64,000 bases of DNA. Source: a virus (lineage: Duplodnaviria; Caudoviricetes). Location of the stretch: the IMG/VR virus record IMGVR_UViG_3300025154_000056, positions 40,341 to 104,340 of that record, one strand, 5' to 3'. The position numbers and the translations under genes were made by a program. Each line of letters opens with the position of its first letter. The stretch's first letter is position 1. The notes beneath the pieces were generated by a model that saw only the letters and a program-made list of their open reading frames with translations, was not told the DNA's origin and made no database searches. Shown piece after piece: positions 28,595-55,477 of the stretch.

Positions 28595-29959
28595 ATGAAA
28601 TTCAGGCTACTCAAAAAGCGCAGACGTAACCCTGCGTACTTCATCAGGAAAACGCGAGAGGCAGACGCCCTCGTCGCAGAGAAGCTGGTGTTCACGGACC
28701 CCATGTACTTTGCGAAGATGAATCGTGGGTTGCCTATTGGTGACGAAGACGGTGTGATCAAGCTGTACCGCGAGGAGGAAGGTCTGTACGTAATTCCTCG
28801 CAATCTATACGCAGACACCAACTGGTATCAGCCCACAGGTATGTCTCACGAGAGCAAGATTACCTTACGCGACTACCAACAGAAGGCATCAGAGAGCCTC
28901 ATGGCTAACCGAGGAGATAAGATCCTGTGTTTGGCATGCGGTAAAGGCAAAACAGTCGTTGCTATTGATGCAGCTTGCCGTGGTGCTCGGCTACCTATGC
29001 TGGTGGTAGTGCACACCAAAGCTCTGTTGTCACAGTGGGTCGAGCGCATCAAGGAACATGCTGGTGTCTCTGAAGATGACATAGGTATGCTCCACAGAGA
29101 TAGAGCTGATTGGTATGGGAAGAAGTTCGTGGTGGCTATGTTGCACACGCTGGTTCAGCGTCAAGACACATACCCAACTGAGCTGTATGACTATTTCAAC
29201 TTGGTTGTATTTGACGAATGTCACAGATTAGCAGCCCACTGGTTTTCTGATGTGTGCTGGCAGTTTGGGTGCGAGCGTTGGGGACTCACCGCTACTCCAG
29301 AGAGAGATGATAAGCTTGAATTTGTGTTCAAGTATCATCTAGGACCTATCTGCCACACAGACACGGTTCAGGATCTGCGACCTACGATGTACTTCGTGCA
29401 CACAGGCATAGACGACAAGGACGAGCGCGTGGTCCTACGTAAGCAGAGAGATGGTAGAGTATCTCTTCCGCTACTGGTGACTTCTCTAGCTAACCACAGT
29501 GGTCGCAACGCAATCATCAACTCGTTTGTGCGTCGAGCCATCAACAAAGACAGAACTGCTTTAGTGTTGGGCGAACGGGTAGCAAGCCTCCAGTACTTGA
29601 TGGGCACCCTGCAGCACGAATCAAAGTCGTTGTTCTTGGGTGGTATGAAGGAGGCAGAAGCATCAGAAGCCCTGAAGGCGCAAGTGGTGTACGCGACGCA
29701 GCAGATGGCTAAGGAAGGGCTCGACAGGCCCGCATTCGACACGCTCATTATCGCGCACCCATTCACAGGCAAGGGTAGGCTGAAGCAGACTGGCGGGCGC
29801 ATCCTCAGGTCCAGAGAAGGCAAACAACACCCAGTCATTTTGGTACTGCAGGATGACCTAGGAGTCAGTAAGGCCATGTGCAGCATCATGCGTCGGCACG
29901 CAGAGTCGTTCAGGTGGAGAGTCAAGCACGTGGACTCGAACGGTAAGAGGGTTCGATGA
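28595..29959 (+). CDS. SF2 DEAD/DEAH-box helicase (UvsW/XPB-like)
   Basis: LRDYQ, LACGKGKT, VFDECH, GLTATPER, EGLDRP, QTGGRILR; start placed at ATG 28595 after GGAGG. Confidence 0.92.
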   Translation: MKFRLLKKRRRNPAYFIRKTREADALVAEKLVFTDPMYFAKMNRGLPIGDEDGVIKLYREEEGLYVIPRNLYADTNWYQPTGMSHESKITLRDYQQKASESLMANRGDKILCLACGKGKTVVAIDAACRGARLPMLVVVHTKALLSQWVERIKEHAGVSEDDIGMLHRDRADWYGKKFVVAMLHTLVQRQDTYPTELYDYFNLVVFDECHRLAAHWFSDVCWQFGCERWGLTATPERDDKLEFVFKYHLGPICHTDTVQDLRPTMYFVHTGIDDKDERVVLRKQRDGRVSLPLLVTSLANHSGRNAIINSFVRRAINKDRTALVLGERVASLQYLMGTLQHESKSLFLGGMKEAEASEALKAQVVYATQQMAKEGLDRPAFDTLIIAHPFTGKGRLKQTGGRILRSREGKQHPVILVLQDDLGVSKAMCSIMRRHAESFRWRVKHVDSNGKRVR

Positions 29960-30378
29960 TCAAGTTCAAGAAGAAGATTAGGGATGTTGAGGGTTACGAC
30001 CCTAAGAAGCGCACGAAGCCGGTCATGCATACCGTGGAGAGATCCGGTAGAGTGTTCCAGATCGGGAATGAAGACATTGAATTGTTCCCGATAGGTGTGC
30101 TGGCTGAGGCGTTGGATCGTAGTGCTCACACAATCAAGCTTCTGGAATTGAAGGGCGAGTTTCCTAAGCCCATGTTCCGTGTGGCTGGCTCTAGGACCAA
30201 GCGTTGGTATTCAGCAGCTCAGGTTATCAACCTGCATCGTTTGATGTACCTCAAGAATGGCGGCAGGAAGTACTTCCAAGATAGAGAGCTGTATGAACTC
30301 TGGACTAAAGAAGTGAAAGAGTTGTTCTACAAAAGAACTGTGGTGATTGACGAACAAGGCAACAGAACGGAGGGCTAA
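29956..30378 (+). CDS. MerR-like winged-HTH DNA-binding protein
   Basis: IGVLAEALDRSAHTIKLLELKGEFPKP...RWYS. Confidence 0.7.
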   Translation: MIKFKKKIRDVEGYDPKKRTKPVMHTVERSGRVFQIGNEDIELFPIGVLAEALDRSAHTIKLLELKGEFPKPMFRVAGSRTKRWYSAAQVINLHRLMYLKNGGRKYFQDRELYELWTKEVKELFYKRTVVIDEQGNRTEG

Positions 30379-30698
30379 TGCGGACACTGATATTCGCGTA
30401 CACACTCAGGATCGCTGACCAGCGTCTGAAGTACGATGTAGTCCCAGGAATTCCAGGTGTGGAAGACATGACCGTGATGGACCTTACGCTGTGGTTTCAA
30501 CGGGTTGTGCCACGCCTCAAGGAAAGTATTCCCAAGGCAGTTGTTGGGGTAGACTCTAACGACATGAATCTGGTGGAGACTCGATTCGTCGAGTCAGTCA
30601 GTCAGACAATTGATAAGTCCTTCTCTCCGGCTCGTGTAGTGGTTATGCGAGCAGAGGCTGTGGCGAACATGATCAACAACGGAGTTACTGACCCATGA
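30378..30698 (+). CDS. hypothetical protein
   Basis: TAATG coupling; SD GGAGG. Confidence 0.65.
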   Translation: MRTLIFAYTLRIADQRLKYDVVPGIPGVEDMTVMDLTLWFQRVVPRLKESIPKAVVGVDSNDMNLVETRFVESVSQTIDKSFSPARVVVMRAEAVANMINNGVTDP

Positions 30699-31138
30699 CA
30701 CACTCATTCAAGTCCAGCATTATGCAGCAGCTCGGTCGTGCCCGACCCATTCTCCGAAATGACCCAGTGACAATGGGAGACCTCGACGACCTGTCCCTTG
30801 TGATTGAGGAAGTCTACACCAAGAACTTTACTGTGGTGGAGAACACGTTGAACAAGTTCCACGAGGGAATCCTGCGGATGGAGCGTACCACCAATGGTAT
30901 GTGGAATACGATGAATGTCATTGTGTCCCTCATGCTGGATAACGATCAAATCAAAGAGAATGAAATCGTCAACAAGGGTAAGCAGCTGTATGTGGAGGCG
31001 AGGGAGAACTTCGACAAGTTGCGAGAGGCGACACGGAAGGGGGTCAAGCCTCCGCCCCTCAAGCGTACCGCTCTTGAGGCCATCATCGCTACCATCTCCG
31101 AAGTGAACAAGGGAGAGTCCGAAGGGAAGCCATCATGA
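30695..31138 (+). CDS. hypothetical protein
   Basis: ATGA coupling at both ends. Confidence 0.65.
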   Translation: MTHSFKSSIMQQLGRARPILRNDPVTMGDLDDLSLVIEEVYTKNFTVVENTLNKFHEGILRMERTTNGMWNTMNVIVSLMLDNDQIKENEIVNKGKQLYVEARENFDKLREATRKGVKPPPLKRTALEAIIATISEVNKGESEGKPS

Positions 31139-31500
31139 GATTGAAGACCAAGACACCGAAGCGCTCTACCATCGAAGCAGAGAGTACGATCACCGACCGT
31201 CGTTCAAAGGAGGTGGTGCACACGAAGGCCACCAAGAAGCTCGGTAAGCCCATCAAGCCCGTCGAGGGTAAGGTGGTGGGCTACGTGAGGTTCGGGGACA
31301 ACCTCAAGATTACGAAGAAGTACCAGAGCACGGGCACAGAGATCACAGCAGAGGTCCCATTCATGATGACACCAGGGGACCTGAGCGAACTTCCTAGTCA
31401 GATTGAGGAAGTGATGGAAGTCATTGACGACGTACTGGCTGAGCACCTCAAGGACCTGAAGGAGGCGCTATCCCAGCTGGCGAAAGAGGATGGGAGATGA
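31135..31500 (+). CDS. hypothetical protein
   Basis: ATGA coupling; basic N-terminus. Confidence 0.7.
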   Translation: MRLKTKTPKRSTIEAESTITDRRSKEVVHTKATKKLGKPIKPVEGKVVGYVRFGDNLKITKKYQSTGTEITAEVPFMMTPGDLSELPSQIEEVMEVIDDVLAEHLKDLKEALSQLAKEDGR

Positions 31501-31973
31501 TGATATTTCGTCTTCGAATTCACAAGCCTCAAAAAGCATTGCTTATGTCGCAGCGCTTTTTCGGTACTCCGGTTCCTACCAAGAAGATCATGTACGCTAC
31601 CCAAGCATACGAAGACTACAAGACAGGTAGCGAGCCCGTAGGGGCCGTACCTCTGTTGGGTATGTACCTGGCCCTGTACGCCCGTAGGTTTGGCTTCCAG
31701 TGGGTAGGCACGTTGAAGCTTATTGAAGAAGAGCTAAAGGTGTTCATGCAGTTGGTGAGGCAGTTCGAGGCTAGAGCCTTTGACATCGTTCGAATTCTGA
31801 TGCTGCATAAAGACCTAGCGTGGGTGACTACATCTCACACTAGGTTCCTATCCAATACAGACAACGTGATCAAGTACATCGTACCTCTGGTCAAGACTAG
31901 GCGACGCGGAGAGCAGAGCGAGTTCACTGCTGAGCGAGCTGCTGCCCGAAGTTCAAAGAGAGTCACACTATGA
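31497..31973 (+). CDS. hypothetical protein (possible replisome organiser)
   Basis: Directly upstream of the DnaC-like gene; coupled. Confidence 0.6.
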   Translation: MMIFRLRIHKPQKALLMSQRFFGTPVPTKKIMYATQAYEDYKTGSEPVGAVPLLGMYLALYARRFGFQWVGTLKLIEEELKVFMQLVRQFEARAFDIVRILMLHKDLAWVTTSHTRFLSNTDNVIKYIVPLVKTRRRGEQSEFTAERAAARSSKRVTL

Positions 31974-32563
31974 GGATGCGTGTCCCCCAGAGGGTAGGCA
32001 CAGCCCGCATCAAGCAATTGGATGATGACCAATTCGACATGGTGCTCGACTACGCGAAGAACCTCCATGCACGACGCGGCAAGGGCACCGGGTTGCTGTT
32101 GTCCGGCCCCCCAGGTATTGGCAAGAGTTGGGCTCTGGCTGCCCTCACCCGGTATGCTGTAGTGCGGAGCGAGAAGGAAGGCTACAGGCTCGACTACGAG
32201 TACATCAGCGCACCGGAGGTCTTCGAGAACTTCGGCGTCGTTGGTGGGGGCGCCGAGCAGGACGAGTGGCGTGGTCAGTCCTGGCGTAGGACGTTCGACA
32301 CCGTACCCTGGTTGGTGATCGATGACCTCGGCAAGGAGTACCGGGGAGGGAAGCTTGCTGAGCAGGTACCGTACCTGCTGGGTAGGATTGTGCGAAAACG
32401 AACTATGAATATGCTGGTTACCCACATAAGTACAAACCTACCTATTGCCACCGAGACCGATGACAGTGTGAGTAGCATCTACGGAGAATCAATCATCTCT
32501 CTTTTGAAGGACGCCACTGAGATGTTCGAGATTCAGGGGGACGACCGGAGGGGAGATGGTTGA
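31970..32563 (+). CDS. dnaC: DnaC/IstB-like AAA+ helicase loader
   Basis: GLLLSGPPGIGKS Walker A, LVIDDLGKE Walker B, ISTNL. Confidence 0.88.
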   Translation: MRMRVPQRVGTARIKQLDDDQFDMVLDYAKNLHARRGKGTGLLLSGPPGIGKSWALAALTRYAVVRSEKEGYRLDYEYISAPEVFENFGVVGGGAEQDEWRGQSWRRTFDTVPWLVIDDLGKEYRGGKLAEQVPYLLGRIVRKRTMNMLVTHISTNLPIATETDDSVSSIYGESIISLLKDATEMFEIQGDDRRGDG

Positions 32564-33848: not shown

Positions 33849-33856
33849 GACCAACC

Positions 33857-35091: not shown

Positions 35092-35144
35092 ACTCCCCGC
35101 AACCCTAAGAGTCTGCGAATTCAGACTCAACGAACGAAAGGTAA

Positions 35145-36272
35145 TTGAAAATGCGACGCGGACTGGCTGCTGTAAAGCAGGTCAAAGAAGAGATGGATCA
35201 GAATGCTGGGGCGAATAGCTACGTCCCTCATTTCACTCTGGAGGACGGTGAGTCAGCCATCGTTGGACTCACAGGAGACAGGGACCAAGAACCTGTAATC
35301 CTCGAAGAGCACAGTATCAAGCAAGGGAACAACTTCACCACCATCATCTGTAGTGCGGACCGACCCAAGTTCAAGGGGAAGTGCGTTTCTTGCCACACGA
35401 ATGCGAGTGGCAATAGGCAGGTGAACCGGACCAACAATAGAGCCGCGTTCAATGTGTACGATTTCCGACTCGTGCATCCTGTGAAGAACAAGGAGAAGTC
35501 GAAGAAGTACGGGCGTGACATTTTTGACAAGGTTCTTTGCACAGGAGAGGTGAAGTGCAAGCGCTGTCGGAACGGGAAGGAACCAGAGTACTGGGGTGAG
35601 AAGCAGTGGAAGCTGTCTATGACCTGGGCGGCTATCTTGGCTGCTCTCAATGACGATGAGCGTGCTAGGTGCAAGTGTGGCGGCAAGATCACCGTTACTG
35701 GGTACCTGGACCCAGAAAACGACAAGGTCTACAAGCATGTCGATGAGGATATGGACACGGACGGGTTTGAGGAGATCCTCGAATGCTCCAAGTGCGAGGA
35801 GCCTGACCCGTACACCATCTTTGACTTTCCAATCAAGGTGAGGCGTAGCGGTAAAAACAAGTCCACTGCGTATGCAATCAGTATTGTCAAGGACGACCCT
35901 GAGATACAAGAGATCTTCGACGCCCTAAAGGAAGATGGTGAATTGAAGCCCGCTGACTTGGAGAAGATCAACTCTCCCCTGTCTCTGCAAAAACAAGCTG
36001 AGCTTATCGGCGTGGTCAACCCCTACAGCAGCAAGTCCGACCGCTCGGAAGACTATGACGATGACGAGGAGGAGGATGATTACGAAGAGACCGAGGATGA
36101 AGACGACGACATGATGGAGGACGAAGATGAAGATGAAGATGATGAGGATGATGACGATGACGATGACGAAGATGATCCTCCTCGCCGCCCTGCTACTCGT
36201 CGAGGTACGAAGAAGAAGGCTGCTAAGAAGCCCACCAAAGGTGCGAAGCGTAGCCTCAGACTGAAGAAGTGA
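35145..36272 (+). CDS. single-stranded DNA-binding protein (gp32-like) with Zn motifs and acidic tail
   Basis: FTLEDGES, AFNVYD, IKVRRSGKNKSTAY; long D/E tract followed by basic end. Confidence 0.75.
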   Translation: MKMRRGLAAVKQVKEEMDQNAGANSYVPHFTLEDGESAIVGLTGDRDQEPVILEEHSIKQGNNFTTIICSADRPKFKGKCVSCHTNASGNRQVNRTNNRAAFNVYDFRLVHPVKNKEKSKKYGRDIFDKVLCTGEVKCKRCRNGKEPEYWGEKQWKLSMTWAAILAALNDDERARCKCGGKITVTGYLDPENDKVYKHVDEDMDTDGFEEILECSKCEEPDPYTIFDFPIKVRRSGKNKSTAYAISIVKDDPEIQEIFDALKEDGELKPADLEKINSPLSLQKQAELIGVVNPYSSKSDRSEDYDDDEEEDDYEETEDEDDDMMEDEDEDEDDEDDDDDDDEDDPPRRPATRRGTKKKAAKKPTKGAKRSLRLKK

Positions 36273-36911: not shown

Positions 36912-36912
36912 A

Positions 36913-37395
36913 ATGGGTCGTCCGTTCGGCACACGTAGGAGACTGGCTGACCGTTTCTGGGAAAAGGTAGACGTCCGAGGACCGGACGACTGCTGGGAGT
37001 GGACAGCTAGTCTAAACCCCAAGGGGTACGGACAAATCTCCGTAGGAAGGAAGCCCATATCGGCGCATATACTATCTTACGAAATGAACGTGGACCCAGT
37101 ACCCGAAAACATGCTTGTCTGTCACACGTGTGACAACAGAAAGTGTGTCAATCCCAAGCACCTGTATGTTGGGACACCGAAGAGCAACTCCCAGGATATG
37201 GTGGATAGGGGCCGTAGCGGCCGTAGCACTATAGGTGAAAAGAATCCAGCGGCTAAATTGACTGAACTTGATGTACTAAAAATTCGTAGCTTAGTGGCAG
37301 GTGGGTTGTCTAGGCTTGAAGTAGCTACTGTATTTGGTGTGCAAATAGGCGCAGTAGGTAAGATAGTCAGGCGAGAGAGGTGGAAGCACGTATGA
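36913..37395 (+). mobile_element. free-standing HNH homing endonuclease gene
   Basis: RFWEKV..DCWEW, GYG, AH..SYE, VCHTCDNRKCVNPKHL, N..DM..RGR, AKLTE..V..IR HTH. Confidence 0.92.
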
Positions 37396-37985
37396 GACAA
37401 TTTAATTTATTGTATGTGGATCCACCATGGCAGTACCAAAGTAAGCGCACTGGCGGGTCCATGTCTAGCGGCTCTGACCAGCAGTACGAAACAATATCCA
37501 CAAAGGAATTGTTGACTACGTCCATAGAGCCCCTCTGCATGGACGATGCATACCTGTGTCTGTGGGCTACAGTGCCCATGATGGAGGAAGCTTTCGCCTT
37601 GATGCGTCAATGGGACTTTACTTATAAGACGAAGCTTAGCTGGCGGAAAAAGCAAGCTAGACTAGGTATGGGTTACTACTTTCGAGGAGAGGTGGAAGAC
37701 CTACTGCTAGGAGTGCGCGGCAAGGTGAAGGCCCCCAGGGTCCAGGAACGAAACTGGATAGACCCACCCCCGACCAAGCATTCTCGGAAGCCAGAAGAGA
37801 TGCGTCTGTTGGTGGAGAAGGCAGCCATCAACTCTTTCGGCAAGAGCAAGGTACGTGCGCTGGAGATGTTCGCCACACACAAAGAGGGTAAAGGAGTATT
37901 GGATTGGTCTTATTGGGGTAACACAATAGAGTCAGACATAGTGTTCGATATATTGAAGCGTAAGCGCTTCCTACTGAGGGCGTAA
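37392..37985 (+). CDS. MT-A70 family N6-adenine methyltransferase
   Basis: LYVDPPW, LCLWAT, WDFTYKT, GMGYYFR..E.LL.G, HSRKP, LEMFA, WGN. Confidence 0.92.
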   Translation: MRQFNLLYVDPPWQYQSKRTGGSMSSGSDQQYETISTKELLTTSIEPLCMDDAYLCLWATVPMMEEAFALMRQWDFTYKTKLSWRKKQARLGMGYYFRGEVEDLLLGVRGKVKAPRVQERNWIDPPPTKHSRKPEEMRLLVEKAAINSFGKSKVRALEMFATHKEGKGVLDWSYWGNTIESDIVFDILKRKRFLLRA

Positions 37986-40120
37986 TGCGGCTCAGGCTTA
38001 TCTCTCCTCCGATGACTACCGCCATTGTGAAGTGGCAGCAGGGCGAGCTTGACTTCTCCACGCCCAAAAGCGTGGTGACGTACAGGCTGCGCAAGTCAGC
38101 GAAGTCTACGTTCCTATCCTTTGAGCAGAAGCACCCACACTGCATCGTAGCTGACACACCAAAGAAGGTGGCAAAAGCACTTGCTCTAATGGAGCGAGTA
38201 CCACTCCTCGGGTTCGACGTTGAGACCATTGGCTCAGATGTCGGTGAGGAGCACCCAATTGGTAAGGCTAAGGTGCTGTCACTCCAGTTGGCTGGTCGAG
38301 TCGACGGGGTGATGTGGGCTGTCTTCGTACCCAACTGGGGCAAGTACGCAGGCACTCTGCGGAAATTCAAGGCGCTCCTTGAGGGCGACAAAGACAAAAC
38401 TGCCCACAACGGTAAGTACGACATCCACGCTTTGTTGAACCACGGCGTCTCAGTCGATGGGTTCCTCCACGATACGCTAATTACTGACAAGCTATTCGCA
38501 ACACAAGAGATGCTGCATGGCTTGAAGGAATGCATGCGTAGGTACTTCGGTAGGGATGCAAAGGATTACAAGGAAGTCTTCAAGACTCCGTACATCAAGA
38601 AGAACGGTCAGCCAGGCAAGCGCATGGTGCTCCAGCCGCTTGAAGAAGTCATCAAGACTCAGGCTGGCATCTGGAAGCTGATCGACTACGCCATAAAAGA
38701 CCCAATCTATTCTGTAGAGCTAGCTGAATACCTACAGAAGAAGCTTGAGAAGGTGGAGTGGAGCAAGCGTGGATCCTACTGGGACTACTACGTAGGATTC
38801 GAAGAGCCTTTCATTCGTGTGTTGGTAGATGTCGAGCGCAACGGCATGTACATCGACCAGCCCAAACTAAATGCCATTCGTGTAGAGATAGAGGAGGCGC
38901 TCACCAAAGCTGAGTGGGCGTTTATGAAGGCGTGTGTTTCTGCTGGAGTCCCAGCAGAGTTCATGGAGTCCTTCAACCTCAACTCGCAAAAGCAACTGGC
39001 TGCATTGTTCCAGAAGCTTGGTGCGAAGATTGTTGACCTCACACCCACTGGGCTACCCAAAGTCGATGAGGCGTCTCTCAAGAAGATCAAGGGTGGCAAG
39101 AAGGTCAAGAAGGTCATCAAAGCACTGCTAGAGTGCAGACGACTGCTCAAGAGCCTCACCACCTACGTTGACCCGCTGCTCAAGTACAGCAAAGAGTATG
39201 GCGGGCGAGTACACACTGATCTGAAGCATGCTGGCACAGCCACCTGGCGGCTGTCGTCTGCAAATCCAAACTTCCAAAATGTGCCCACAGGGGCAAAGGA
39301 TACGTACTCCATACGTGGGTGCATCATCGCTGAATTCTCAACCCACGTGATCGCAGACATCGACTTGTCACAGATTGAGATGCGTCTAATGGCGCACTTC
39401 AGTCGAGACAAGCGGATGCTGCAAGCTATCAGAGACGGTTGGGATCTCCACTCCCTCGCGGCGTGGAACCTAGCACAGCACGGACTCTTCCCGGAGATCA
39501 AGGCGCACTTCGGTGCTAGAGAGCTAAGCAAAGAGGTCCTGGCTGAGCTGGCTGAGGTGTTCCCAGACCAGCGTAAGAAAGCAAAGACTATCAATTTCGG
39601 CGTGGGTTACGGTATGGGGCCGACCCGCTACGCAGTGATGACTGGGTCCTCCATGGACGAGGGACGCAGGGCCATTCAAGCGTTCTTCAAGGGCTTCCCA
39701 GGGCTCAAATACAACATCGAGAATGTACGCAAGTACGCTCATGAGCACGGGCACATCCGTACCCTGCTGCGTAAGTACGTTGGTATCCCGTTCATCAATC
39801 ACCCCGATGAAGGGCTGCGCGCTGCTGGTGAGAGGCAGGCATACAACTACCTGATTCAAGGGAGTGCAGCAGAGCTACTCAAGATGAGTATGATTCTAAT
39901 CCACAATGATGAGGTGCTGCGTGGTCTAGGTGTCAAGATGATCATGCAGATTCATGACGAGCTTCTGTTCGAGATGCCTCTGGCATCTATGGCTGAAGCT
40001 ACGCCCATCATCGAGGACTACGTCAGCCACCCATACAGGTACTTCGGGATGAAAGACCTTCTGGTGGATACACCGGCTGACCTCGGCAGTGGCATTTCTT
40101 GGGCAGAAGCGAAGCACTGA
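37985..40120 (+). CDS. polA: family A DNA polymerase with 3'-5' exonuclease
   Basis: FDVET, HNGKYD, YAIKD; RLSSANPNFQN; DLSQIEMR; RKKAKTINFGVGYG; NYLIQGSAA; QIHDEL. Confidence 0.96.
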   Translation: MRLRLISPPMTTAIVKWQQGELDFSTPKSVVTYRLRKSAKSTFLSFEQKHPHCIVADTPKKVAKALALMERVPLLGFDVETIGSDVGEEHPIGKAKVLSLQLAGRVDGVMWAVFVPNWGKYAGTLRKFKALLEGDKDKTAHNGKYDIHALLNHGVSVDGFLHDTLITDKLFATQEMLHGLKECMRRYFGRDAKDYKEVFKTPYIKKNGQPGKRMVLQPLEEVIKTQAGIWKLIDYAIKDPIYSVELAEYLQKKLEKVEWSKRGSYWDYYVGFEEPFIRVLVDVERNGMYIDQPKLNAIRVEIEEALTKAEWAFMKACVSAGVPAEFMESFNLNSQKQLAALFQKLGAKIVDLTPTGLPKVDEASLKKIKGGKKVKKVIKALLECRRLLKSLTTYVDPLLKYSKEYGGRVHTDLKHAGTATWRLSSANPNFQNVPTGAKDTYSIRGCIIAEFSTHVIADIDLSQIEMRLMAHFSRDKRMLQAIRDGWDLHSLAAWNLAQHGLFPEIKAHFGARELSKEVLAELAEVFPDQRKKAKTINFGVGYGMGPTRYAVMTGSSMDEGRRAIQAFFKGFPGLKYNIENVRKYAHEHGHIRTLLRKYVGIPFINHPDEGLRAAGERQAYNYLIQGSAAELLKMSMILIHNDEVLRGLGVKMIMQIHDELLFEMPLASMAEATPIIEDYVSHPYRYFGMKDLLVDTPADLGSGISWAEAKH

Positions 40121-40125: not shown

Positions 40126-40437
40126 TTGAAAGGAGGAATTCACGTGATTCGAGGATGCATCCCAGCCAGGACCGACGGACCCAGGGCATTCGCTGTGGAC
40201 ATCAACCTGAGGGAGATTCTATCCCTTGTGCGAAAGATGGACATGGTATTCAACAGCAGGACGCAGGTGCTACGTGTCACATGCACGATCCACCACTCGG
40301 AGGGCGAGGAGGGATACGATATCGGCGTATCGTCGATTGTCTCTAACGGAGAGTCAACACTGTCGAAACTTCTACGTGTCGTGTGCATCGGACCACTTTC
40401 ACGCTTACGTCAGGAGCCGCAACGGGATAGTGAGTGA
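40126..40437 (+). CDS. hypothetical protein
   Basis: Fills the gap after polA; strong AGGAGG suggests a start near 40144. Confidence 0.5.
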   Translation: MKGGIHVIRGCIPARTDGPRAFAVDINLREILSLVRKMDMVFNSRTQVLRVTCTIHHSEGEEGYDIGVSSIVSNGESTLSKLLRVVCIGPLSRLRQEPQRDSE

Positions 40438-45923: not shown

Positions 45924-45995
45924 TCCTGTCATCGAAATTCTGAGCGGACCCAATTTTGGCTTATGGGTCGCCGACAAACTGAAGGACTTGGCGTA

Positions 45996-46391: not shown

Positions 46392-46867
46392 TGGCTCGAA
46401 AGAGCGCTATTTACCAGTGTCCTGTTTGTGGTCGCGGGATTGCGGCTACAACACAGGACCCTGTCGTTTCTAGTAGTCAAACAGGAAGATTCTATTACCA
46501 CAAGAAGTGCTACACAGCACTGTGGAGATACCTCCGTGAAGATCCGTCTTACCGAGAAACAAAACCCATCACAAAAGGTGACCTCTCGAAAGCCCTCAAA
46601 GCTGTCGCGAAAAAGACTCGATTCGATTCGCGAAAAAGCAGCGCAGGCCCATCTAGAGGTCACAAAAGGATTCGCCTCGTTGCAGGTGCGGGTACCCCCC
46701 AGGCCAGCACTCAAAAACGGGCAGCTACTCGAACCTCTGCTACCAGAAGATCTGACGGTGCTAAACGATGTCCTGTTGGGTCGTCTGTTTTCAGAGTTCG
46801 CCTGCATGGCACAGTACGTTCAACTCCATCTAGCAGCGAAGTCCGTCAACACGGCGATAAAGCGTAG
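46388..46867 (+). CDS. Zn-binding hypothetical protein with overprinted tail
   Basis: CPVC...HKKC; coupled to the upstream gene. Confidence 0.5.
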   Translation: MMARKSAIYQCPVCGRGIAATTQDPVVSSSQTGRFYYHKKCYTALWRYLREDPSYRETKPITKGDLSKALKAVAKKTRFDSRKSSAGPSRGHKRIRLVAGAGTPQASTQKRAATRTSATRRSDGAKRCPVGSSVFRVRLHGTVRSTPSSSEVRQHGDKA

Positions 46868-47102
46868 GATTGAGCGACATATCAGAGCGTCTGTCAGGCT
46901 TGAGAAGGATGGGACAGTCGAAGACAAGACAGCACAGGTGGATGTCGACATACGGTCGATTGACATCTCCTTCGATTTGGCTGTCGCAGAAGGCGTCGAA
47001 GTGATGACAAAAGGAGTGATGGATATGTACGTCTCAGGGCGTGATGCCATCTCCAGAGAGATCACTAGGCGTCAGATGATTCTGAAAGAGAGAGCGCTAT
47101 GA
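46536..47102 (+). CDS. UvsY-like recombination mediator (helical)
   Basis: GTG start after GGAG; C-terminal AISREITRR; recombination context. Confidence 0.55.
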   Translation: MKIRLTEKQNPSQKVTSRKPSKLSRKRLDSIREKAAQAHLEVTKGFASLQVRVPPRPALKNGQLLEPLLPEDLTVLNDVLLGRLFSEFACMAQYVQLHLAAKSVNTAIKRRIERHIRASVRLEKDGTVEDKTAQVDVDIRSIDISFDLAVAEGVEVMTKGVMDMYVSGRDAISREITRRQMILKERAL

Positions 47103-47410: not shown

Positions 47411-48025
47411 ATGGGACGCTCGCAGAGGCAAAAAGGTGCTCGTGGGGAGCGCAGGGTAGCGAATGAGCTGCGTGAACTGCTTGCGCCTCACTTCCCAGAG
47501 CTGGTGGACCACATACGGCGTGGTGCTCAGTCTCGGGAAGGTGACGACAATGCAGACGTAGAGGGCATTCCTGGCCTTTGGTTCGAGGTGAAGCACGGGA
47601 AGCTACCAAACCCTCGTGCTGCCCTCGACCAAGCCACTACAGCGTCTGCTGGGAGGCGTACGCCCCTAGCAGTCATCATCGACGACCGAAAACCCCCCTT
47701 CGTAGTGATGTGGTGGGACGACATACAGCAATTCATACTGACCTATTTGGAGAAGACCTATGTACGACAGGGATTTGTACATGCCCGGCCCGGACGGGAC
47801 GATGTTTCAGATCACGCGGGATCTGGACGGCACAACGACAGCAACCCCAGTGACCGACCCCGAAGCGAAATTCATCGAGGTAACGGAAAAGGATCTGTCG
47901 GGCAACGTGAAGTCAACGGGGTGGTACCACCTAGCGCAGGACATCGAAGAGGCGAAGAAGCAAGCGGAGGACAACAGTCACAGGTTGTTTTTCGGTATCG
48001 AAGAAAACGAGAAAGACCCTGCTAA
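47411..48025 (+). CDS. Holliday junction resolvase-like nuclease (archaeal Hjc type) with overprinted tail
   Basis: SQRQKGARGERRVA..L, ADV, WFEVK. Confidence 0.8.
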   Translation: MGRSQRQKGARGERRVANELRELLAPHFPELVDHIRRGAQSREGDDNADVEGIPGLWFEVKHGKLPNPRAALDQATTASAGRRTPLAVIIDDRKPPFVVMWWDDIQQFILTYLEKTYVRQGFVHARPGRDDVSDHAGSGRHNDSNPSDRPRSEIHRGNGKGSVGQREVNGVVPPSAGHRRGEEASGGQQSQVVFRYRRKRERPC

Positions 48026-48467
48026 AATCAAGCAGAGGTTTAGGCGTGTCGACCAACTGCAGAGTCTGCTCACCCAAATCACTATGGATAGGATGAGTCC
48101 AGTTGGTATTCCTCAGGTCCGCTACGTCAAAGACGAGATGTTCATGGACTTGATGAATATGTACAAGAAGGCAACGCTTGATGGCAAGCAGAAGGATTGT
48201 GAATTCCAACCTCTCAATACGTACATGCACAAGCTGGTTCTCAAGACCGGTAAGCAGTTGCGCCCTGTCCTGGTTGGTGAAGTCGGGATGATTGGACCTG
48301 AGATTCTGTGCCTCGAACAAGGCTATGGCGGCACTGTGTTCTCGGTCTCCGCTGCCATCTCCAGAGACCAAGAAGAGCAACGTAAGGCTCGGGAGGCTGA
48401 GGCCGCCCCCACTACCCAGCGTAACTCTGGTGAGGATTGGGAGTACGCGGATGAGGAGGAGGAATGA
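47760..48467 (+). CDS. hypothetical protein
   Basis: SD GGAG; 235-aa ORF. Confidence 0.7.
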   Translation: MYDRDLYMPGPDGTMFQITRDLDGTTTATPVTDPEAKFIEVTEKDLSGNVKSTGWYHLAQDIEEAKKQAEDNSHRLFFGIEENEKDPAKIKQRFRRVDQLQSLLTQITMDRMSPVGIPQVRYVKDEMFMDLMNMYKKATLDGKQKDCEFQPLNTYMHKLVLKTGKQLRPVLVGEVGMIGPEILCLEQGYGGTVFSVSAAISRDQEEQRKAREAEAAPTTQRNSGEDWEYADEEEE

Positions 48468-48909: not shown

Positions 48910-48918
48910 GGTACAACA

Positions 48919-49770
48919 ATGAAGCCTCTTACTAAGAGAACTCATACTGACAAGATCATACAGATGGCCCTAGACGGGACTCTTGAAGAGCACGGGGAGG
49001 ATATTGAATACAAGCTAGTTCATTTGTGGGGCGCAAACGGCTGCCCAGACGGACTGACATTCGACCCCAGGATCTACCGAGAGTGTGCAATCAAGCTAGC
49101 TGCTTATGCATGTCGTGATGGTCTGATCATCCATGGTGACCCTCTGTTTGAGGAGGTTACTGAGGGTCGACAGACCGACATGATCAAGTGGAAGAAGCTC
49201 TATTCATCGTGCGGAGACTTACCTCATTGGATGCTGAAGATGCTTGGTTGCAGGAATGAGAAGCTCGTCAATAGGAATGACGATGGTGGTGAGATTCCGT
49301 GGGTGGTTGGGGCAAACCTGTCACGCATCATCTACAGCGCACAAGGTTCATTCATCTGGTCTCGACAGAACAAGCTCAGGTTCCCCAAGAATGGCGACGT
49401 GGTCTACCTGGGGTACCCAGAGCACGTTGGTGTAGTGCTTGGCAGGTCCGGTAGCCTCAACGTCGGCGAAATCCCGGAGGCGGTCATACTCGCTGAGTAC
49501 GGGCAAGTCGATGATATCAAAAAGGGCCGCACACCAACCTTCAAACCGGCTGGCAAGGTCCGAGTCCACCTCGTCAGTCGTCAGTACAATGGTGACATTC
49601 TGATTGGTGAACGCAGTCTCTTTGGCTGGCTCGACATTACCACAGTTGGTAATGACGTACCTGCTACCGTACCCAAGTCGTTCAACATCGGTACCCCCTA
49701 CAGAGATGATAACAACCCCTACATTTACCCTCCTGAGCATGGCTTTGGGGCTGAGGACGATGAGTCATGA
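48919..49770 (+). CDS. CHAP/NlpC-like cysteine amidase (possible peptidoglycan hydrolase)
   Basis: YSSCGDLPHWML...PKNGDVVYL...EHVGVV Cys/His pair. Confidence 0.6.
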   Translation: MKPLTKRTHTDKIIQMALDGTLEEHGEDIEYKLVHLWGANGCPDGLTFDPRIYRECAIKLAAYACRDGLIIHGDPLFEEVTEGRQTDMIKWKKLYSSCGDLPHWMLKMLGCRNEKLVNRNDDGGEIPWVVGANLSRIIYSAQGSFIWSRQNKLRFPKNGDVVYLGYPEHVGVVLGRSGSLNVGEIPEAVILAEYGQVDDIKKGRTPTFKPAGKVRVHLVSRQYNGDILIGERSLFGWLDITTVGNDVPATVPKSFNIGTPYRDDNNPYIYPPEHGFGAEDDES

Positions 49771-50156
49771 AACAGTTCAAGTACACTCTCACCAAGAAGT
49801 TCGAATTCCACGCAGCTCATTCACTCAAGGGAGCTGTACCGGACTCCCACAAGTGTGCTGTGCTTCATGGGCACACATACAAGGGAGAGATGAAGCTGCA
49901 TGCGGTGGACCTAGAAGATCATCTTGTGGTTGATGCTGGCATATTGAGCGCAGTCATATCGCAGCTTGACCACAAGAACCTCAACGATGTCCTGCATCAC
50001 CCGGCGTCAGTAGAGAACATCGCACGATGGATTGCTGAGGCAACCCTCAACACCCTGTTCAAGCTCGGTATTGAGAACTCAGTACAGTTCGATTACGTTG
50101 AATTGTGGGAGACGGATTCTCTCTCGTGCAGAGTCACGTTGGAGGACGTAGAGTGA
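49767..50156 (+). CDS. queD: 6-carboxytetrahydropterin synthase
   Basis: FHAAH.L, C..LHGHTY, LDHKNLND, ENIA, LWET. Confidence 0.93.
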   Translation: MKQFKYTLTKKFEFHAAHSLKGAVPDSHKCAVLHGHTYKGEMKLHAVDLEDHLVVDAGILSAVISQLDHKNLNDVLHHPASVENIARWIAEATLNTLFKLGIENSVQFDYVELWETDSLSCRVTLEDVE

Positions 50157-50926
50157 TGGACCCCAGTCCCATGGTCAAGCTGGCGCAACAGGACCCGTTC
50201 GTCGCCACCATACAGGGCGAAGGGGATTACGTCGGCGAGCCCGCTGTGTTCATACGTCTGTTCGGCTGCACCACCATGTGCTCGTGGTGTGACACCAAGT
50301 ACGCATGGCAAGAAGGCCACGGCTACTTTGAGTTGATGCCTGATGACATAGTCAAGACTGTCAATAGAGATTTCCCCAATATACGTCACATCGTGCTGAC
50401 TGGTGGTAATCCGTACGTACAAGGCGAGAAGATGCCACGTATGGCGTTCATGCTTAGCCAGCCATCTCATCCCAATAGCAGGCTGCGACGCCACGTTAGT
50501 ATCGAAACAGAAGGCAGCATTTATTACGACAAGCTTTCTCACAGCGTGTCGTCGATTACCTTGTCCCCCAAACTTTGGTGCTGGCCCGATAAAGTCATCG
50601 CCATGTTCTATGCCCACCACTACCAGAAGATCACTACCAAGATCGTGGTGGGCTCCAAGGACGACGTGTCGGAGGCCATCGACAAGCTACTTGAAATCCA
50701 CACCCTGTATTCTGTCGGAGACACTGGCGGTATGAATTACATCCTGCAGCCTAAGGCTGTAGTTCCCAGTGAGTTCTCTACTCAAGAGAGCACGGCTGTG
50801 TACATAGAGCAGGTGTCCATGCAAGTGGTGGACTGGGTCTTGGACTACATCAGCATGCTCGACAAGCCACTGCCTTTTAGACTTCGAGTAATTCCACAAG
50901 TGCATCGACTCTTGGGGCTCCCATGA
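50153..50926 (+). CDS. queE: 7-carboxy-7-deazaguanine synthase (radical SAM)
   Basis: TIQGEG, FIRLFGCTTMCSWCDTKY, LTGGNP, IETEG, SPK, PQVH. Confidence 0.93.
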   Translation: MMDPSPMVKLAQQDPFVATIQGEGDYVGEPAVFIRLFGCTTMCSWCDTKYAWQEGHGYFELMPDDIVKTVNRDFPNIRHIVLTGGNPYVQGEKMPRMAFMLSQPSHPNSRLRRHVSIETEGSIYYDKLSHSVSSITLSPKLWCWPDKVIAMFYAHHYQKITTKIVVGSKDDVSEAIDKLLEIHTLYSVGDTGGMNYILQPKAVVPSEFSTQESTAVYIEQVSMQVVDWVLDYISMLDKPLPFRLRVIPQVHRLLGLP

Positions 50927-51192
50927 GCTACAATACCGGGTCAGATGTCATTATCCAGGTGGTCAATAAGTCCACTGGAGAAGTGGAAGAGACCTTCGAC
51001 GTCAATGCGGCTGTTCTGGTTACTGTAGAAGATGACACGGTAGACCAGTCGTACACTGTCGAAGTGCACTCCTTCGGTCTAGAAGAGGAGGAAGTATGTG
51101 TGATTCTGGAGACTGCGCTGGACGCTGCGGGGATCGAGGACCAGGAGGATGTGGACAGTGCTCCTGCGGAGAAGGAAAAATTCATCTGCTGA
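50923..51192 (+). CDS. acidic hypothetical protein
   Basis: ATGA coupling to queE. Confidence 0.6.
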   Translation: MSYNTGSDVIIQVVNKSTGEVEETFDVNAAVLVTVEDDTVDQSYTVEVHSFGLEEEEVCVILETALDAAGIEDQEDVDSAPAEKEKFIC

Positions 51193-51752
51193 AGGACTCG
51201 TACATCAATATCGTGGCTAGTATTGTTCCTGGGGACGAGCTAACTGATCCTGAATTGGATCTGCAGCACACCCCGGATAGAGCAGCTAAAGCCATGGTCG
51301 AGCTGCTTGGAACCTACTCAATAGGTGCTCTACAGGATCTAGATGCACAATGGAAGCAGTTTGATTCTAGGTGGGTACGGGAGGGCACACCAGTAGTTCA
51401 GAATGGAATTAGGTTCTATTCTATGTGTGCTCACCATATGCTACCGTTCTTTGGGTATTTCGATGTCCAGTATGTGGTTGGACCGGGGCGGCAGATCGCA
51501 GGGCTAAGCAAGCTGGCTCGTACCATCAACTACTTCAGCGCGATGCTCCAGACCCAAGAGCGGCTGACTACTATGGTGCATGACTACCTAGCCTCGAAGC
51601 TCAGCCCCACAAGGCTCCAGGTCCATACAATCGCCCGCCACCTGTGCATGGAGATGCGAGGGGTGCACAACGACGCTTGTACCGAGGTCATGATCGCGTC
51701 AGGCGACGGCACAGATCTGGACATGTTTCAGACGACTCTCGACAGACCTTGA
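51186..51752 (+). CDS. folE: GTP cyclohydrolase I (start uncertain)
   Basis: TPDRAAK, SMCAHHMLPFFG, GLSKLAR, QTQERLT, HLCMEMRG. Confidence 0.93.
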   Translation: MLKDSYINIVASIVPGDELTDPELDLQHTPDRAAKAMVELLGTYSIGALQDLDAQWKQFDSRWVREGTPVVQNGIRFYSMCAHHMLPFFGYFDVQYVVGPGRQIAGLSKLARTINYFSAMLQTQERLTTMVHDYLASKLSPTRLQVHTIARHLCMEMRGVHNDACTEVMIASGDGTDLDMFQTTLDRP

Positions 51753-51788
51753 CGACGTCGAATAGACGACGTAGATTTAGCGACGGAG

Positions 51789-52214: not shown

Positions 52215-52250
52215 ACGGACATTTTCCCCCGTCACAAGGAGACGTATATC

Positions 52251-52760
52251 ATGGCAGTGAAGAAGACAGCGAAGAAGAGCACGAAGAAGACGGCCACCAA
52301 GAAGACCACCAAGAAGGCAGCGCCCAAGACGGAGAAGAAGGCGACCAAGAAGGTGGCTGAGCCCAAGAAGGCGACCAAGAAGGCAGCAGCGGAGCCCAAG
52401 AAGGCCACGAAGAAGGCGACCAAGAAGATCACCCCGAAGAAGCCCGCTGAGGTCACCAAGAAGGCAGCAACGAAGAAGGAACCCAAGGAGAAGGCTGCCC
52501 GCAAGGGGCGCCCGAGTGCCATGCTGGCGTGGTCCGACGTCAGCGACAAGGCAAAGAAGCTGATCACCAAGGTGGAAGGCTTCGAGGAGCAGATCGAGCA
52601 GCTCAAGAAGGACATCTCTGACACGCTGACGAACCTCATGGATACAATGGACGCTGCTTCTTTTGACCATCCGAAGCGCGGTCCGCTGTCTATCATGGTG
52701 CGGGGGGATCTGACTTACTGGCGTGCGAAGCCGGTTGGCCGTGCTGGGGGTAAGAAGTAA
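52251..52760 (+). CDS. histone H1-like Lys/Ala/Thr-rich DNA-binding protein
   Basis: Repeats of KKATKK/PKKATKK, then a coiled coil; SD AAGGAG. Confidence 0.85.
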   Translation: MAVKKTAKKSTKKTATKKTTKKAAPKTEKKATKKVAEPKKATKKAAAEPKKATKKATKKITPKKPAEVTKKAATKKEPKEKAARKGRPSAMLAWSDVSDKAKKLITKVEGFEEQIEQLKKDISDTLTNLMDTMDAASFDHPKRGPLSIMVRGDLTYWRAKPVGRAGGKK

Positions 52761-52773
52761 GGGGGCTTGGTGG

Positions 52774-53043
52774 ATGATCTTCCGGCTCAAGATCACAAAG
52801 AGGCTTCCGGGTCACTGGGTAAAAGCCTCTAGCACTTGCCGGTTCGAAAGTATCGCCACCAAGTTTGAGAGGGGGAAAGTCGCATCTCTTTTGTATGAGC
52901 ATGTTGTACAGATAAGAGAGCGGCGACGCGGTGGTATCTGGGTTCGACTAATTGAACCTACTAGTTCGTGGGACAGAGAGTTACTTGATGTCAGCTTTGA
53001 AGATGCTGGTATCACAATAGAAAGGGATGAAGCACATGGCTAA
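52774..53043 (+). CDS. hypothetical protein (starts MIFRLK)
   Basis: ATG after AAGGGGG. Confidence 0.6.
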   Translation: MIFRLKITKRLPGHWVKASSTCRFESIATKFERGKVASLLYEHVVQIRERRRGGIWVRLIEPTSSWDRELLDVSFEDAGITIERDEAHG

Positions 53044-54061
53044 CAACAACGGTAAATACGAAGACATGCCTCTCTCCGAGCTTCGCAAGCTGGCGAAGAG
53101 CCTGAAGGTCAATCCTTCTGGAAAGGGTCGCAACATGCTCATTCGAGCAATTCAGAAGGCTCAATTGGCGAAGGAAGGGAAGTCGACGGCGGCAGACCCC
53201 GGTGCGTCGAAGCGCGCAGCTACCAAGAAGCCCGCAGCGACGAAGGCTACTGCCACCAAGAAGCCCGCTGCCAAGGCAAAGAAGGAAGAGCCCGAAGAGG
53301 AAGAGGACGACCTTGCCACCCTCGTGAAGAAGCTGACGAAGGAGGTCGCCAAGCTCGGCAAGCGGCTGGATGCGCTGGAGGAGGCAGAGCCTGAGACCGA
53401 AGAGGAAGAGGAGGAGCCCGAGGAGGAGGACGCAGAGGAAGCCGCCGAGGACGAAGAGGAAGAGGAAGAAGAGACCGAGGAGGAGGAAGAAGAAGAGACT
53501 GAGGACGAAGAAGAGGAGGAGGAGGAGTCCGAGGAAGAGGCTGAGGAAGAGGAGTCCGAGGAGGAGGAAGAGGACGAGCCCGAAGAGGAGGAGGAAGAAG
53601 AGACGGTTGATATCAGCCTCGCTGAGATTGAATCCGCGAAGCTCGACCGGCTCACCGAAGTCGCGAACTTGATCAACACCAATGGTGGCAAGATCAAGCT
53701 GACAAAGAAGACTGAGGTATTGCGTCAGTCGATCGTCAACTTCCTGCAGGAGAATGCGGAGAAGGTGGTCGAGGATGCCCCCGCGTCGAAGGAAACTCCC
53801 GCTGACAACAGCGGAGAGGTGTACGAGGTGGGCGACAAGGTGGAGGTGATGTTCCTGGACGAAGACGAGGCAGAGGTCTGGGAAGAAGGCACCGTGGTGA
53901 AGATCAAGAAGAACGTCGTGGTCGTCGACATCGGTGACGGGGAAGTCGCCGACGCTCCGTTCGACTCGGTTCGTCGCCCGGCGAAGAAGAAGGCTACCAA
54001 GAAGCCCGCAGCGAAGCCTGCGGCTACGAAGAAGGCCACGAAGAAGACCACCAAGAAGTGA
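53036..54061 (+). CDS. multidomain protein: HEH/Rho-N-like domain, AKK repeats, Glu tract, Tudor/Agenet-like barrel
   Basis: MPLSELRKLAKSLKV...GRNMLIRAI; ~75-residue Glu-rich tract; YEVGDKVEV...WEEGTVVKI...VVVD...SVRRP. Confidence 0.75.
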   Translation: MANNNGKYEDMPLSELRKLAKSLKVNPSGKGRNMLIRAIQKAQLAKEGKSTAADPGASKRAATKKPAATKATATKKPAAKAKKEEPEEEEDDLATLVKKLTKEVAKLGKRLDALEEAEPETEEEEEEPEEEDAEEAAEDEEEEEEETEEEEEEETEDEEEEEEESEEEAEEEESEEEEEDEPEEEEEEETVDISLAEIESAKLDRLTEVANLINTNGGKIKLTKKTEVLRQSIVNFLQENAEKVVEDAPASKETPADNSGEVYEVGDKVEVMFLDEDEAEVWEEGTVVKIKKNVVVVDIGDGEVADAPFDSVRRPAKKKATKKPAAKPAATKKATKKTTKK

Positions 54062-54131
54062 ACTACGCGTGACTCTGACCTAAGCGCTGCGTCCCTCAAC
54101 AGGGGCCAGCGCTTTCGTCTTTTGGAGGGAG

Positions 54132-54548: not shown

Positions 54549-54784
54549 AAGCAGCAGCACATACGACACACGAAGTGACGTTGACCTACAAGATAGTAGC
54601 CAACGGTAGGTACTGCTCACGTAAATGCAAGCACTTGAATAGTTATAGTGAGTGTGGGCTATTCAGGCACAATGACAAGTGGTCGTCGGCTCGAAGCCTT
54701 AGGCAATTAGGTGGCAGCAGCATTCGCTGCACACGGTGCCTCTCTGCCACCCTAACTGCTGCGGACAAGGCGGTGGCAAAATGA
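54545..54784 (+). CDS. Cys-rich hypothetical protein
   Basis: Coupled; CSRKC..C..RCTRC. Confidence 0.55.
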   Translation: MKAAAHTTHEVTLTYKIVANGRYCSRKCKHLNSYSECGLFRHNDKWSSARSLRQLGGSSIRCTRCLSATLTAADKAVAK

Positions 54785-55404
54785 AAGCAGAGTTGGCTAG
54801 GCCACATGCCCGTGGCATCGACACAGTGCAGGTACTCAGCACCAGTAACTGTCAGTGGCTCGTGCAGAACCATTATGACTTCGTGATTAGGTACCTGTAC
54901 GGTCGGTACGCCGTATCCGATCACGAGATTGACTGCATCCTGAATGCTGGTCTGGCGTTGATGCTATGCACACCGTCTAGGTCCCCAGGATGGAGGGCCG
55001 ATGGGCTAGGTAACTCCGACGGTTTTCAAGCAGTCGCGTCATTGACGTCACTGACTGTTCCGAAGAGCGTCACCACATGGATTGATCTAGAGGGCTGCAT
55101 AAGCCCAGCTGTTACCACCAGTGATTGGATTGATACATTCAGCCTAGCGATCCGCAATGCAGGCCACGAGGCTGGTCTGTACGTTGGTGCAAATCCTGGT
55201 GGCCTCGATTCTGAGACGTTGTGGAAACGACCGCATGTCACACGCTATTGGCGCTCTGGGTCTCGCGTGCCTGAGCCAGCTAACAGAGGTTGGTGTATGC
55301 AGCAGCTGCGGCCCCTCGACGTCAAGCTCGGCCCGATACACGTGGACCACGACGTAATTGAGACTGACTTCAAAGGCGGTCTACCGACCTGGATAGTGAA
55401 ATGA
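54781..55404 (+). CDS. DUF1906/GH25-like glycoside hydrolase (endolysin candidate)
   Basis: GIDT, YDFVIRYL, E...ILNAGLAL, WIDLE, GLYVG, WCMQQ, VDHD. Confidence 0.8.
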   Translation: MKAELARPHARGIDTVQVLSTSNCQWLVQNHYDFVIRYLYGRYAVSDHEIDCILNAGLALMLCTPSRSPGWRADGLGNSDGFQAVASLTSLTVPKSVTTWIDLEGCISPAVTTSDWIDTFSLAIRNAGHEAGLYVGANPGGLDSETLWKRPHVTRYWRSGSRVPEPANRGWCMQQLRPLDVKLGPIHVDHDVIETDFKGGLPTWIVK

Positions 55405-55405
55405 C

Positions 55406-55477
55406 ATGAAGATTCGTCTGGTACTGAATCCGTATGTAGGCAATGTGGTGAATAAGAAAGTCTGGAGCCACATATGA
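55406..55477 (+). CDS. 23-aa peptide MKIRLVLNPYVGNVVNKKVWSHI
   Basis: Fills the gap exactly; its stop overlaps the dpdA start (ATGA). Confidence 0.45.
   Translation: MKIRLVLNPYVGNVVNKKVWSHI

Follow-up and report, generated by a model that had tools for sequence, protein, structure and literature searches.

A shared N-terminal pentapeptide on replication and recombination proteins of a groundwater phage and its possible role in docking

INTRODUCTION

[quoted passage not shown] The gp32 A domain, T7 gp2.5, and the acidic-tail hubs of bacterial SSBs have in common that one hub serves polymerase, helicase, recombinase, and mediator. For gp32, the polymerase is a further contact. Here we analyze an uncultured phage that encodes a gp32-like SSB with an acidic region together with a similar set of proteins, several of which open with the same short peptide, M-x-[FILV]-R-L (the motif). 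The DNA studied, called the window below, is a stretch of 64,000 nucleotides (positions 40,341 to 104,340 of IMG/VR record IMGVR_UViG_3300025154_000056; Duplodnaviria, Caudoviricetes), that is, the last 64 kb of a linear contig of 104,340 bp with an estimated completeness of 82%. Whereas in T4 a short peptide on the SSB docks into folded clients, in this phage a shared basic peptide on the N termini of the clients would be the docking element.

Other short terminal peptides invite comparison. The N-terminal motif classes recognized by ClpX and the tag of lambda O have been described (PMC12723719). Like the motif, the lambda O degron is an unstructured N-terminal tag with a hydrophobic-basic-hydrophobic core; the spelling fits only in part, however, and eight proteins carry the peptide here, compared to one. 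As Flynn et al. 2003 are said to have defined them, N-motif-1 reads polar-T/hydrophobic-hydrophobic-basic-hydrophobic and N-motif-2 reads Met-basic-hydrophobic-hydrophobic-hydrophobic. The copies described here lie where such tags lie (residues 1 to 5, on unstructured ends) but do not match these reported consensus sequences. Sliding-clamp peptides resemble the motif in being short terminal peptides common to many DNA metabolism proteins, with alternating hydrophobic residues on a flexible end. The clamp-binding consensus is QL[SD]LF or QLxLxh in bacteria, including an N-terminal copy in Hda, and T4 has gp45-binding tails. None of the eight copies matches this consensus: all lack the Gln and have Arg in the usual place of Ser or Asp, and hydrophobic residues occupy positions 2 and 4 in 8/8 but position 5 in only 3/8.

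The capsid targeting sequence of T4 is likewise a short N-terminal peptide on several phage proteins, its carriers being packaged virion proteins that the prohead protease cleaves at L/I-x-E. A packaging signal had been one suggestion for the motif, and it is not borne out, since the motif occurs on replication enzymes and on no virion gene, and L-x-E follows a single copy, at 46536. A literature search found no relevant described N-terminal tag on phage replication proteins.

RESULTS

The motif opens eight proteins and is selected at the protein level

The original prediction placed M-x-[FILV]-R-L at seven starts (28595, 31500, 37985, 42862, 46536, 52774, and 55406) and near matches at 31970 (MRMRV) and 31135 (MRLKT). 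A coordinate check on the sequence found all of them as described. Scanning the whole contig added an eighth exact copy, MKFRLS, at genome position 7624, 33 kb upstream of the window, where it opens a 421-amino-acid gene. All copies share the same makeup, with Met followed by Lys, Arg, or Ile, then a hydrophobic residue and Arg-Leu; a Pro and a basic flexible linker come after it. The Pro lies 3 to 8 residues past the motif (residues 6 to 13) in 8/8 copies; of the other genes, 37% have a Pro there (p about 4e-4 in a post hoc test).

Five of these starts are the best candidates without regard to the motif, each being the earliest start codon past the upstream stop or else the earliest ATG combined with the best ribosome-binding site. 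The start at 28595 is the first ATG and the best Shine-Dalgarno match, with GGAGG upstream, and that at 52774, likewise the first ATG, shows a Shine-Dalgarno match and is clear of the upstream gene. At 37985, 42862, and genome position 7624, no earlier start codon follows the upstream stop; the first of these starts shares one base with that stop (TAATG), and the second overlaps the upstream gene by ATGA. The start at 31500 is ambiguous, as translation from an ATG at 31497, which overlaps the upstream stop, would yield MMIFRL. At 46536 stands the third start codon of the frame, the sole one with GGAG in place (eight bases upstream); a public gene call put the start of this gene at 46428.

From the internal frequency of [FILV]RL, 0.23 motif starts would be expected among 161 starts. 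A motif-blind automatic gene caller yields 5 and hand-checked starts yield 7 to 8, so that the predicted enrichment over background holds for counts of starts. In distant phage loci subjected to the same gene calling, the motif opens 2 of 2,446 genes (Fisher p = 1.6e-5 against the automatic count). A count independent of gene calls found ATG-x-hydrophobic-R-L 8 times on the + strand, compared to 2 to 3.3 expected (p about 0.001 to 0.02), and 7 of these 8 are gene starts.

The Arg and Leu of the motif are each written with four kinds of codons, in line with usage in the genome, and this variation indicates that selection acts on the protein. Even copies with the same or nearly the same residues (the MKFRL pair, the MIFRL pair, and the MK(V/I)RLT pair) differ at nearly every synonymous site. 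Both the codon diversity and the protein-level selection that had been proposed are thus confirmed, and a motif at the mRNA level is ruled out by the codon diversity. The predicted absence from virion genes also holds: no gene of the virion module of the contig opens with the motif, and all carriers are DNA metabolism genes or non-virion genes of unknown function. Overall, the motif is real, enriched, and under protein-level selection.

At least five copies lie on flexible protein ends

In an AlphaFold2 model of the family A DNA polymerase (PolA; residues 1 to 350, 14 orthologues), the mean predicted local distance difference test score (pLDDT) was 85. Residues 1 to 41 all scored <50 and had no secondary structure, the rest scored >90, and the exonuclease fold began at about residue 46, placing MRLRL at the tip of an extension of about 45 residues. 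The helicase model had a mean pLDDT of 88 overall but 49 for residues 1 to 10, in which MKFRL is followed by a Lys/Arg run, with a Pro at residue 13. In both proteins the motif-bearing ends scored 32 to 49, and the models leave the copies unpacked against their folds. In the RecA-family recombinase, MKVRL and a Pro/Lys linker precede the N-terminal RecA helix, and the Pfam match begins only at residue 19. The 46536 and genome-7624 proteins continue from the motif into long Lys/Ser/Pro-rich low-complexity linkers: in the former, KIRL leads into a linker of about 25 residues and the conserved body begins at about residue 26; in the latter, the first ~250 residues are Lys/Ser/Thr-rich and of low complexity. 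Based on the RecA Pfam boundary, the pLDDT of PolA and the helicase, and the linkers of the 46536 and genome-7624 proteins, at least five copies lie on floppy ends.

The claim that the motif precedes the conserved folds as an extension therefore stands for PolA, RecA, and the 46536 and genome-7624 proteins. The copies at 31500, at 52774, and in the 23-codon open reading frame (ORF) at 55406 read like strand-turn-strand hairpins and might belong to small folds. A Sec or Tat signal peptide was rejected, as no hydrophobic core of 10 to 20 residues follows the motif and basic or polar linkers with Pro are found instead.

Relatives keep a looser N-terminal element

No close genome was found in the collections searched; the nearest syntenic phages share 40 to 50% identity in helicase, PolA, and loader. 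A DNA search with PolA against the phage collection gave no match, and a single-protein locus search with the helicase gave none. The relatives considered below were reached through an alignment.

PolA starts with MRVRV, MRWRL, MLYRL, MRIKY, or M-T-R-L-I-I-R in relatives, two of which have no such start, and the helicase starts with MLIRL, MRIRY, or MRIIY. The N termini of 31500-family orthologues alternate Lys/Arg with hydrophobic residues. The genome-7624 orthologue reads MKFVL and continues into a low-complexity linker, and a weak orthologue of the 52774 protein starts with MRWKL and is again followed by an acidic SAP-domain protein. A RecA relative with 70% identity (P0122) reads M-A-A-K-L-R-L-K, its start having been verified on the DNA, where it overlaps the upstream stop. 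Homologues of the 46536 protein read M-R-L-I-E-K (P0134, 84% identity) and M-V-K-I-R-A (P0136), and orthologues of the 31135 protein have basic N termini without the motif. Among about 25 N termini of the same families in relatives, 2 to 4 are spelled hydrophobic-R-L.

The retention in orthologues that had been anticipated thus holds for a looser, basic/hydrophobic N terminus, which is kept at 40 to 84% identity while the linkers vary in length and sequence, but not for the exact spelling and register. Judging from these alignments, every family keeps a basic/hydrophobic element within the first eight residues, in a register that varies among the relatives and is at times displaced by two residues.

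PolA contains two basic/hydrophobic elements, at residues 1 to 5 and, as YRLRK, at residues 33 to 37 (window 37985-38110). In the alignment, residues 32 to 37 match the position of the N termini of the relatives' PolA, and the PolA of relative G002 has the same layout. Because the inner copy aligns with these N termini, the outer 30 residues appear to have been added later. It looks as if PolA gained about 30 N-terminal residues, possibly by duplication, with the new end again spelling the motif and the ancestral copy becoming internal. In a further relative (L038/L143, a Logan contig of 91.7 kb), three unrelated replication-module proteins, including PolA, start with M-T-(R/I)-(L/V)-x-I-(R/K) and a Lys run, and these strings could represent a local version of the element.

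The near match of the DnaC-like loader was rejected as a copy of the tag. In all loader orthologues, R-V-P-x-R-F/V is conserved at differing distances from the start, and the near match is this family's own (R)VPxRF element.

The 23-codon ORF is not a detached DpdA end

The 23-codon ORF starts one base past the stop of the preceding gene and shares ATGA with the start of the DpdA-like gene. It was considered as a frameshifted N-terminal extension of the DpdA-like protein. This was ruled out: the DpdA frame is closed by a stop at 55453-55455, 19 bases ahead of its ATG, no slippery heptamer is present, and contigs from three groundwater samples of two studies are identical to the base at this ORF, so that the frame break is not an assembly error. 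The ORF does not resemble the N-terminal extensions that DpdA has in the relatives, and nothing like it was found there. It is a true separate ORF that would encode a putative peptide. The DpdA-like family phrog_887 is itself split over two distant genes, the one downstream of this ORF (profile positions 10-286) and the genome-7624 gene (positions 357-481). Relatives G002 to G004 carry both phrog_887-matching genes.

Gene map and setting

The features discussed here are listed in Table 1. Nearly all genes lie on the + strand, and identical DNA was recovered from groundwater metagenomes of two studies. The virion genes, among them those for capsid, tail tube, and tape measure, occupy window positions 1 to 27,600. 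The replication/recombination module begins at 28,595 with the superfamily 2 (SF2) helicase, the DnaC-like loader, DnaB, primase, the gp32-like SSB, PolA, and ligase, and continues with methylases, RecA, a PD-(D/E)XK nuclease, RusA, and SpoVS. For the 31500 protein, the atlas gave weak leads only, to Phg_2220_C and gp59, and the UvsY lead of the 46536 protein amounts to 15% of one cluster.

Table 1. Carriers of the motif, near matches, and associated genes (window coordinates unless a contig label is given; aa, amino acids)
Feature	Coordinates	Strand	N terminus and basis of assignment
SF2 (ResIII/DEAD) helicase, 454 aa	28595..29959	+	MKFRLL; Pfam ResIII 1.5e-21 from residue 88
121-aa protein	31135..31500	+	near match MRLKT, then Lys/Thr/Pro-rich linker
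157-aa protein upstream of DnaC-like loader	31500..31973	+	MIFRLR; no Pfam or PHROG family
DnaC-like helicase loader	31970..32563	+	near match MRMRV; phrog_50, 3e-19
gp32-like SSB	35151..36272	+	sequence; synteny with orthologues of relatives
Family A DNA polymerase with 3'-5' exonuclease (PolA), 711 aa	37985..40120	+	MRLRLI; Pfam DNA_pol_A 4e-85
RecA-family recombinase, 358 aa	42862..43938	+	MKVRLT; Pfam RecA 1.9e-31 from residue 19
188-aa protein, weak UvsY lead	46536..47102	+	GTG start, then KIRLT; no family found
89-aa protein	52774..53043	+	MIFRLK; between Lys-rich H1-like and acidic SAP-domain genes
SAP/HeH-domain protein, 341 aa	53036..54061	+	weak Pfam SAP match; sequence
23-codon ORF	55406..55477	+	MKIRLV; predicted
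DpdA-like DNA transglycosylase body	55474..56649	+	phrog_887, 3.5e-32, profile positions 10-286 of 509
Genome-7624 protein, 421 aa	L039:7624-8889		MKFRLS; C-terminal 135 residues match phrog_887 positions 357-481

The replication module is followed by a 7-deazaguanine DNA modification set, with QueD, QueE, FolE, and the DpdA-like gene in the window and two QueC genes upstream of it. The pathway is complete on the contig, comprising QueD (PTPS), a QueE of the radical-SAM type, GTP cyclohydrolase I, and a pair of QueC paralogues (window 49767-51752; L040:5738-7148), in one of which the QueC profile match is limited to the C-terminal third. Because this set occurs together with DpdA-like genes, the gene content points to phage DNA that is modified with 7-deazaguanine.

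Other genes of the region were also noted. An HNH endonuclease gene (36913-37395) lies immediately upstream of an MT-A70 DNA methyltransferase gene (37392-37985). Directly downstream of the DpdA-like gene, a 285-amino-acid protein (56653-57510) has a weak C-terminal match to Peptidase_C1 (papain family), which would be an unusual protease for a non-structural phage module. Two long ORFs in different frames, 47411-48025 and 47760-48467, overlap by about 265 bases; the RusA match of the former is confined to its first 109 residues, and the latter has no family.

DISCUSSION

A docking peptide for a shared partner

The reading that we favor over the others, although we regard it as possible rather than probable, is that the motif is a docking peptide for a shared partner, perhaps the gp32-like SSB. 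The amphipathic basic strand, together with the basic linker, would hold the enzymes on one partner at the site of replication and recombination, in an arrangement resembling the recruitment of gp59, UvsX, UvsY, and Dda by T4 gp32. At least seven tagged proteins act on DNA, namely, the SF2 helicase, the loader-adjacent protein, PolA, RecA, the possible mediator, the protein of the chromatin-like operon, and the DpdA-related protein. Within this set, the helicase, the loader-associated protein, the recombinase, and the mediator correspond to clients of gp32. That all copies are read by one partner, and which partner this is, are inferences.

The first candidate partner would be the phage's own SSB, the second the acidic SAP-domain protein, and the third the host sliding clamp. 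As in known SSB hubs, the SSB has an acidic C-terminal region, and the replication and recombination enzymes are its putative clients. Its Asp/Glu tract of about 50 residues is unusually long and leads into a basic tail ending in L-R-L-K-K, and the protein contains several Cys pairs. In all relatives, its orthologues lie between primase and PolA and have acidic tails. The Lys/Arg-rich tail after the acidic tract is unlike that of most relatives, although the L038/L143 relative is also basic there.

The SAP/HeH protein has its SAP/HeH-like part at the start, carries a Glu tract of about 75 residues, and has a small barrel-like segment at the C terminus; among the relatives, a full-length orthologue occurs in G003 only. 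It belongs to a three-gene group (52251-54061) with an H1-like protein, which has about 90 residues of Lys/Ala/Thr repeats, and the 89-amino-acid MIFRL protein. The 52774 and SAP/HeH genes are kept as a pair in G003.

Inherited strands or one shared reader

Several observations weigh against docking on one partner, and part of them support a different account. Clients in the known SSB systems contribute a folded pocket and not a terminal peptide, so that the proposed geometry has no direct precedent. A PHROG and PDB sequence search found no clamp family among the unknown proteins of the phage, and no other reader was identified. The starts at 31500 and 46536 are less certain than the others. 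The motif was defined post hoc in a scan of very many windows, and raw p values therefore overstate the case and statistics alone are insufficient; in an unbiased dipeptide scan of positions 2 to 7, R-L at positions 4 and 5 ranks first but fails correction by itself. Four independent features help the motif beyond these counts: the Pro past every copy, the synonymous variation with codons in line with genome usage, the absence from virion genes, and the related N termini of the relatives. A register-tolerant pattern is enriched only 2- to 3-fold in the clade. In a permutation test, the shared spelling among unrelated proteins of one genome was highly significant with this genome included, but p was 0.20 without it. 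A co-evolving dialect, which would have been the strongest argument for a single reader, is thus unsupported. The C-terminal look-alikes that had been pointed out in SSB, SpoVS, and the 51789 ORF do exist, but [FILV]RL in the last 20 residues is found in 8 proteins compared to 4 expected, which is chance level; in SpoVS, moreover, the string is part of the Pfam fold. They were therefore rejected as part of the system. In the helicase family (120 homologues), a conserved N-terminal M-x-R-hydrophobic strand with a central Arg is followed by a second, likewise conserved strand ending in VPK, and helicase relatives, including those of distant phages, start with M-x-R-hydrophobic-R-hydrophobic. The PolA proteins of distant phages all start with M-P-R-L-R-L-L-P-P, and the 29956 and QueD families, too, have N-terminal strands of their own.

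Since such N termini are found in the helicase, PolA, and other families of distant phages, the pattern is partly inherited family sequence, and the idea of a phage-wide tag is weakened by this, by the chance-level C-terminal strings, and by the family-intrinsic DnaC match. The same data could mean that there is no common reader at all, the copies being family-specific basic/hydrophobic strands or arms (an edge strand, a hairpin, or a family contact) whose uniform spelling results from drift and post hoc selection. The hairpin-like copies at 31500, at 52774, and in the 23-codon ORF would fit this explanation. We nevertheless consider it slightly less likely than docking. With 2 to 4 such spellings among about 25 relatives' N termini, drift is unlikely to have spelled all seven copies hydrophobic-R-L, and the unpacked ends of PolA and the helicase and the Pro found past every copy also speak against it. 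Moreover, three copies precede long disordered linkers and for this reason cannot be edge strands of an adjacent domain. Taken together, the feature is partly inherited within each family, while its spelling is unusually uniform in this one genome.

Degradation, charge, and translation

The position of the motif at the extreme N terminus, on unstructured ends, would also suit an N-degron read by a host AAA+ protease such as ClpXP, which would give the replication, recombination, and DNA modification proteins a short, regulated lifetime. Lys, Arg, or Ile at position 2 blocks removal of Met, and the copies have one of these residues there. The hydrophobic-basic-hydrophobic core resembles the ClpX N-motif classes, and lambda O is itself a phage replication protein. 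Neither consensus fits well, however, as N-motif-2 wants a hydrophobic residue at the Arg position and the core of N-motif-1 is complete only in the two MIFRL copies. In the close RecA relative the element lies two residues deeper, so that a free alpha-amino group in a fixed register is not required. There is no evident gain from destabilizing polymerase, recombinase, and helicase together. We thus regard a degron as quite unlikely.

A nonspecific arm that binds nucleic acid or polyanions, raising the local concentration on DNA or in a DNA/protein condensate without any receptor pocket, appears less probable still. It would account for the mean charge of the first 15 residues, which is +1.3 in the replication module and +0.1 in virion proteins (p = 0.03), and for linkers that reach a net charge of up to +5 in ten residues after the motif; the Lys-rich H1-like protein is also encoded in the genome, as are two proteins whose acidic tracts are very long. 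But charge does not explain why, in eight copies, position 4 is always Arg and never Lys and position 5 is always Leu, and in PolA, RecA, and the 23-codon ORF the next ten residues have a net charge of only 0 to +1.

An effect on translation, in which the first codons or the nascent pentapeptide would tune initiation or early elongation, is in our opinion highly improbable. In this genome the motif is fixed to codons 2 to 5, many copies have an A-rich second codon, and the 23-codon ORF, which also carries the motif, may serve only translational coupling. Against this stand the free variation at synonymous sites, the shifted register of the element in relatives, the ordinary Shine-Dalgarno strength at the motif starts, and the absence of the motif from virion genes, which are presumably the most highly expressed.

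What a shared reader would mean

A broader form of the docking reading, which we think unlikely, would make the motif an N-terminal address tag, common to the lineage, for a single receptor that assembles the replication, recombination, and 7-deazaguanine enzymes into a factory. The tag would be re-created when an N terminus is extended, as in PolA, and the 23-residue peptide, which contains hardly anything beyond the tag, would act as a docking competitor or regulator.

If there is no common reader, the motif is a warning that family-intrinsic N-terminal strands can mimic a shared tag. If one partner does read the peptide, it would provide a handle on how polymerase, helicase, recombinase, and DNA-modifying enzymes are gathered in one place, and the short peptide could be used to pull down the hub. 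A basic, N-terminal tag borne by the clients would then be the reverse of the known acidic tail borne by the hub.

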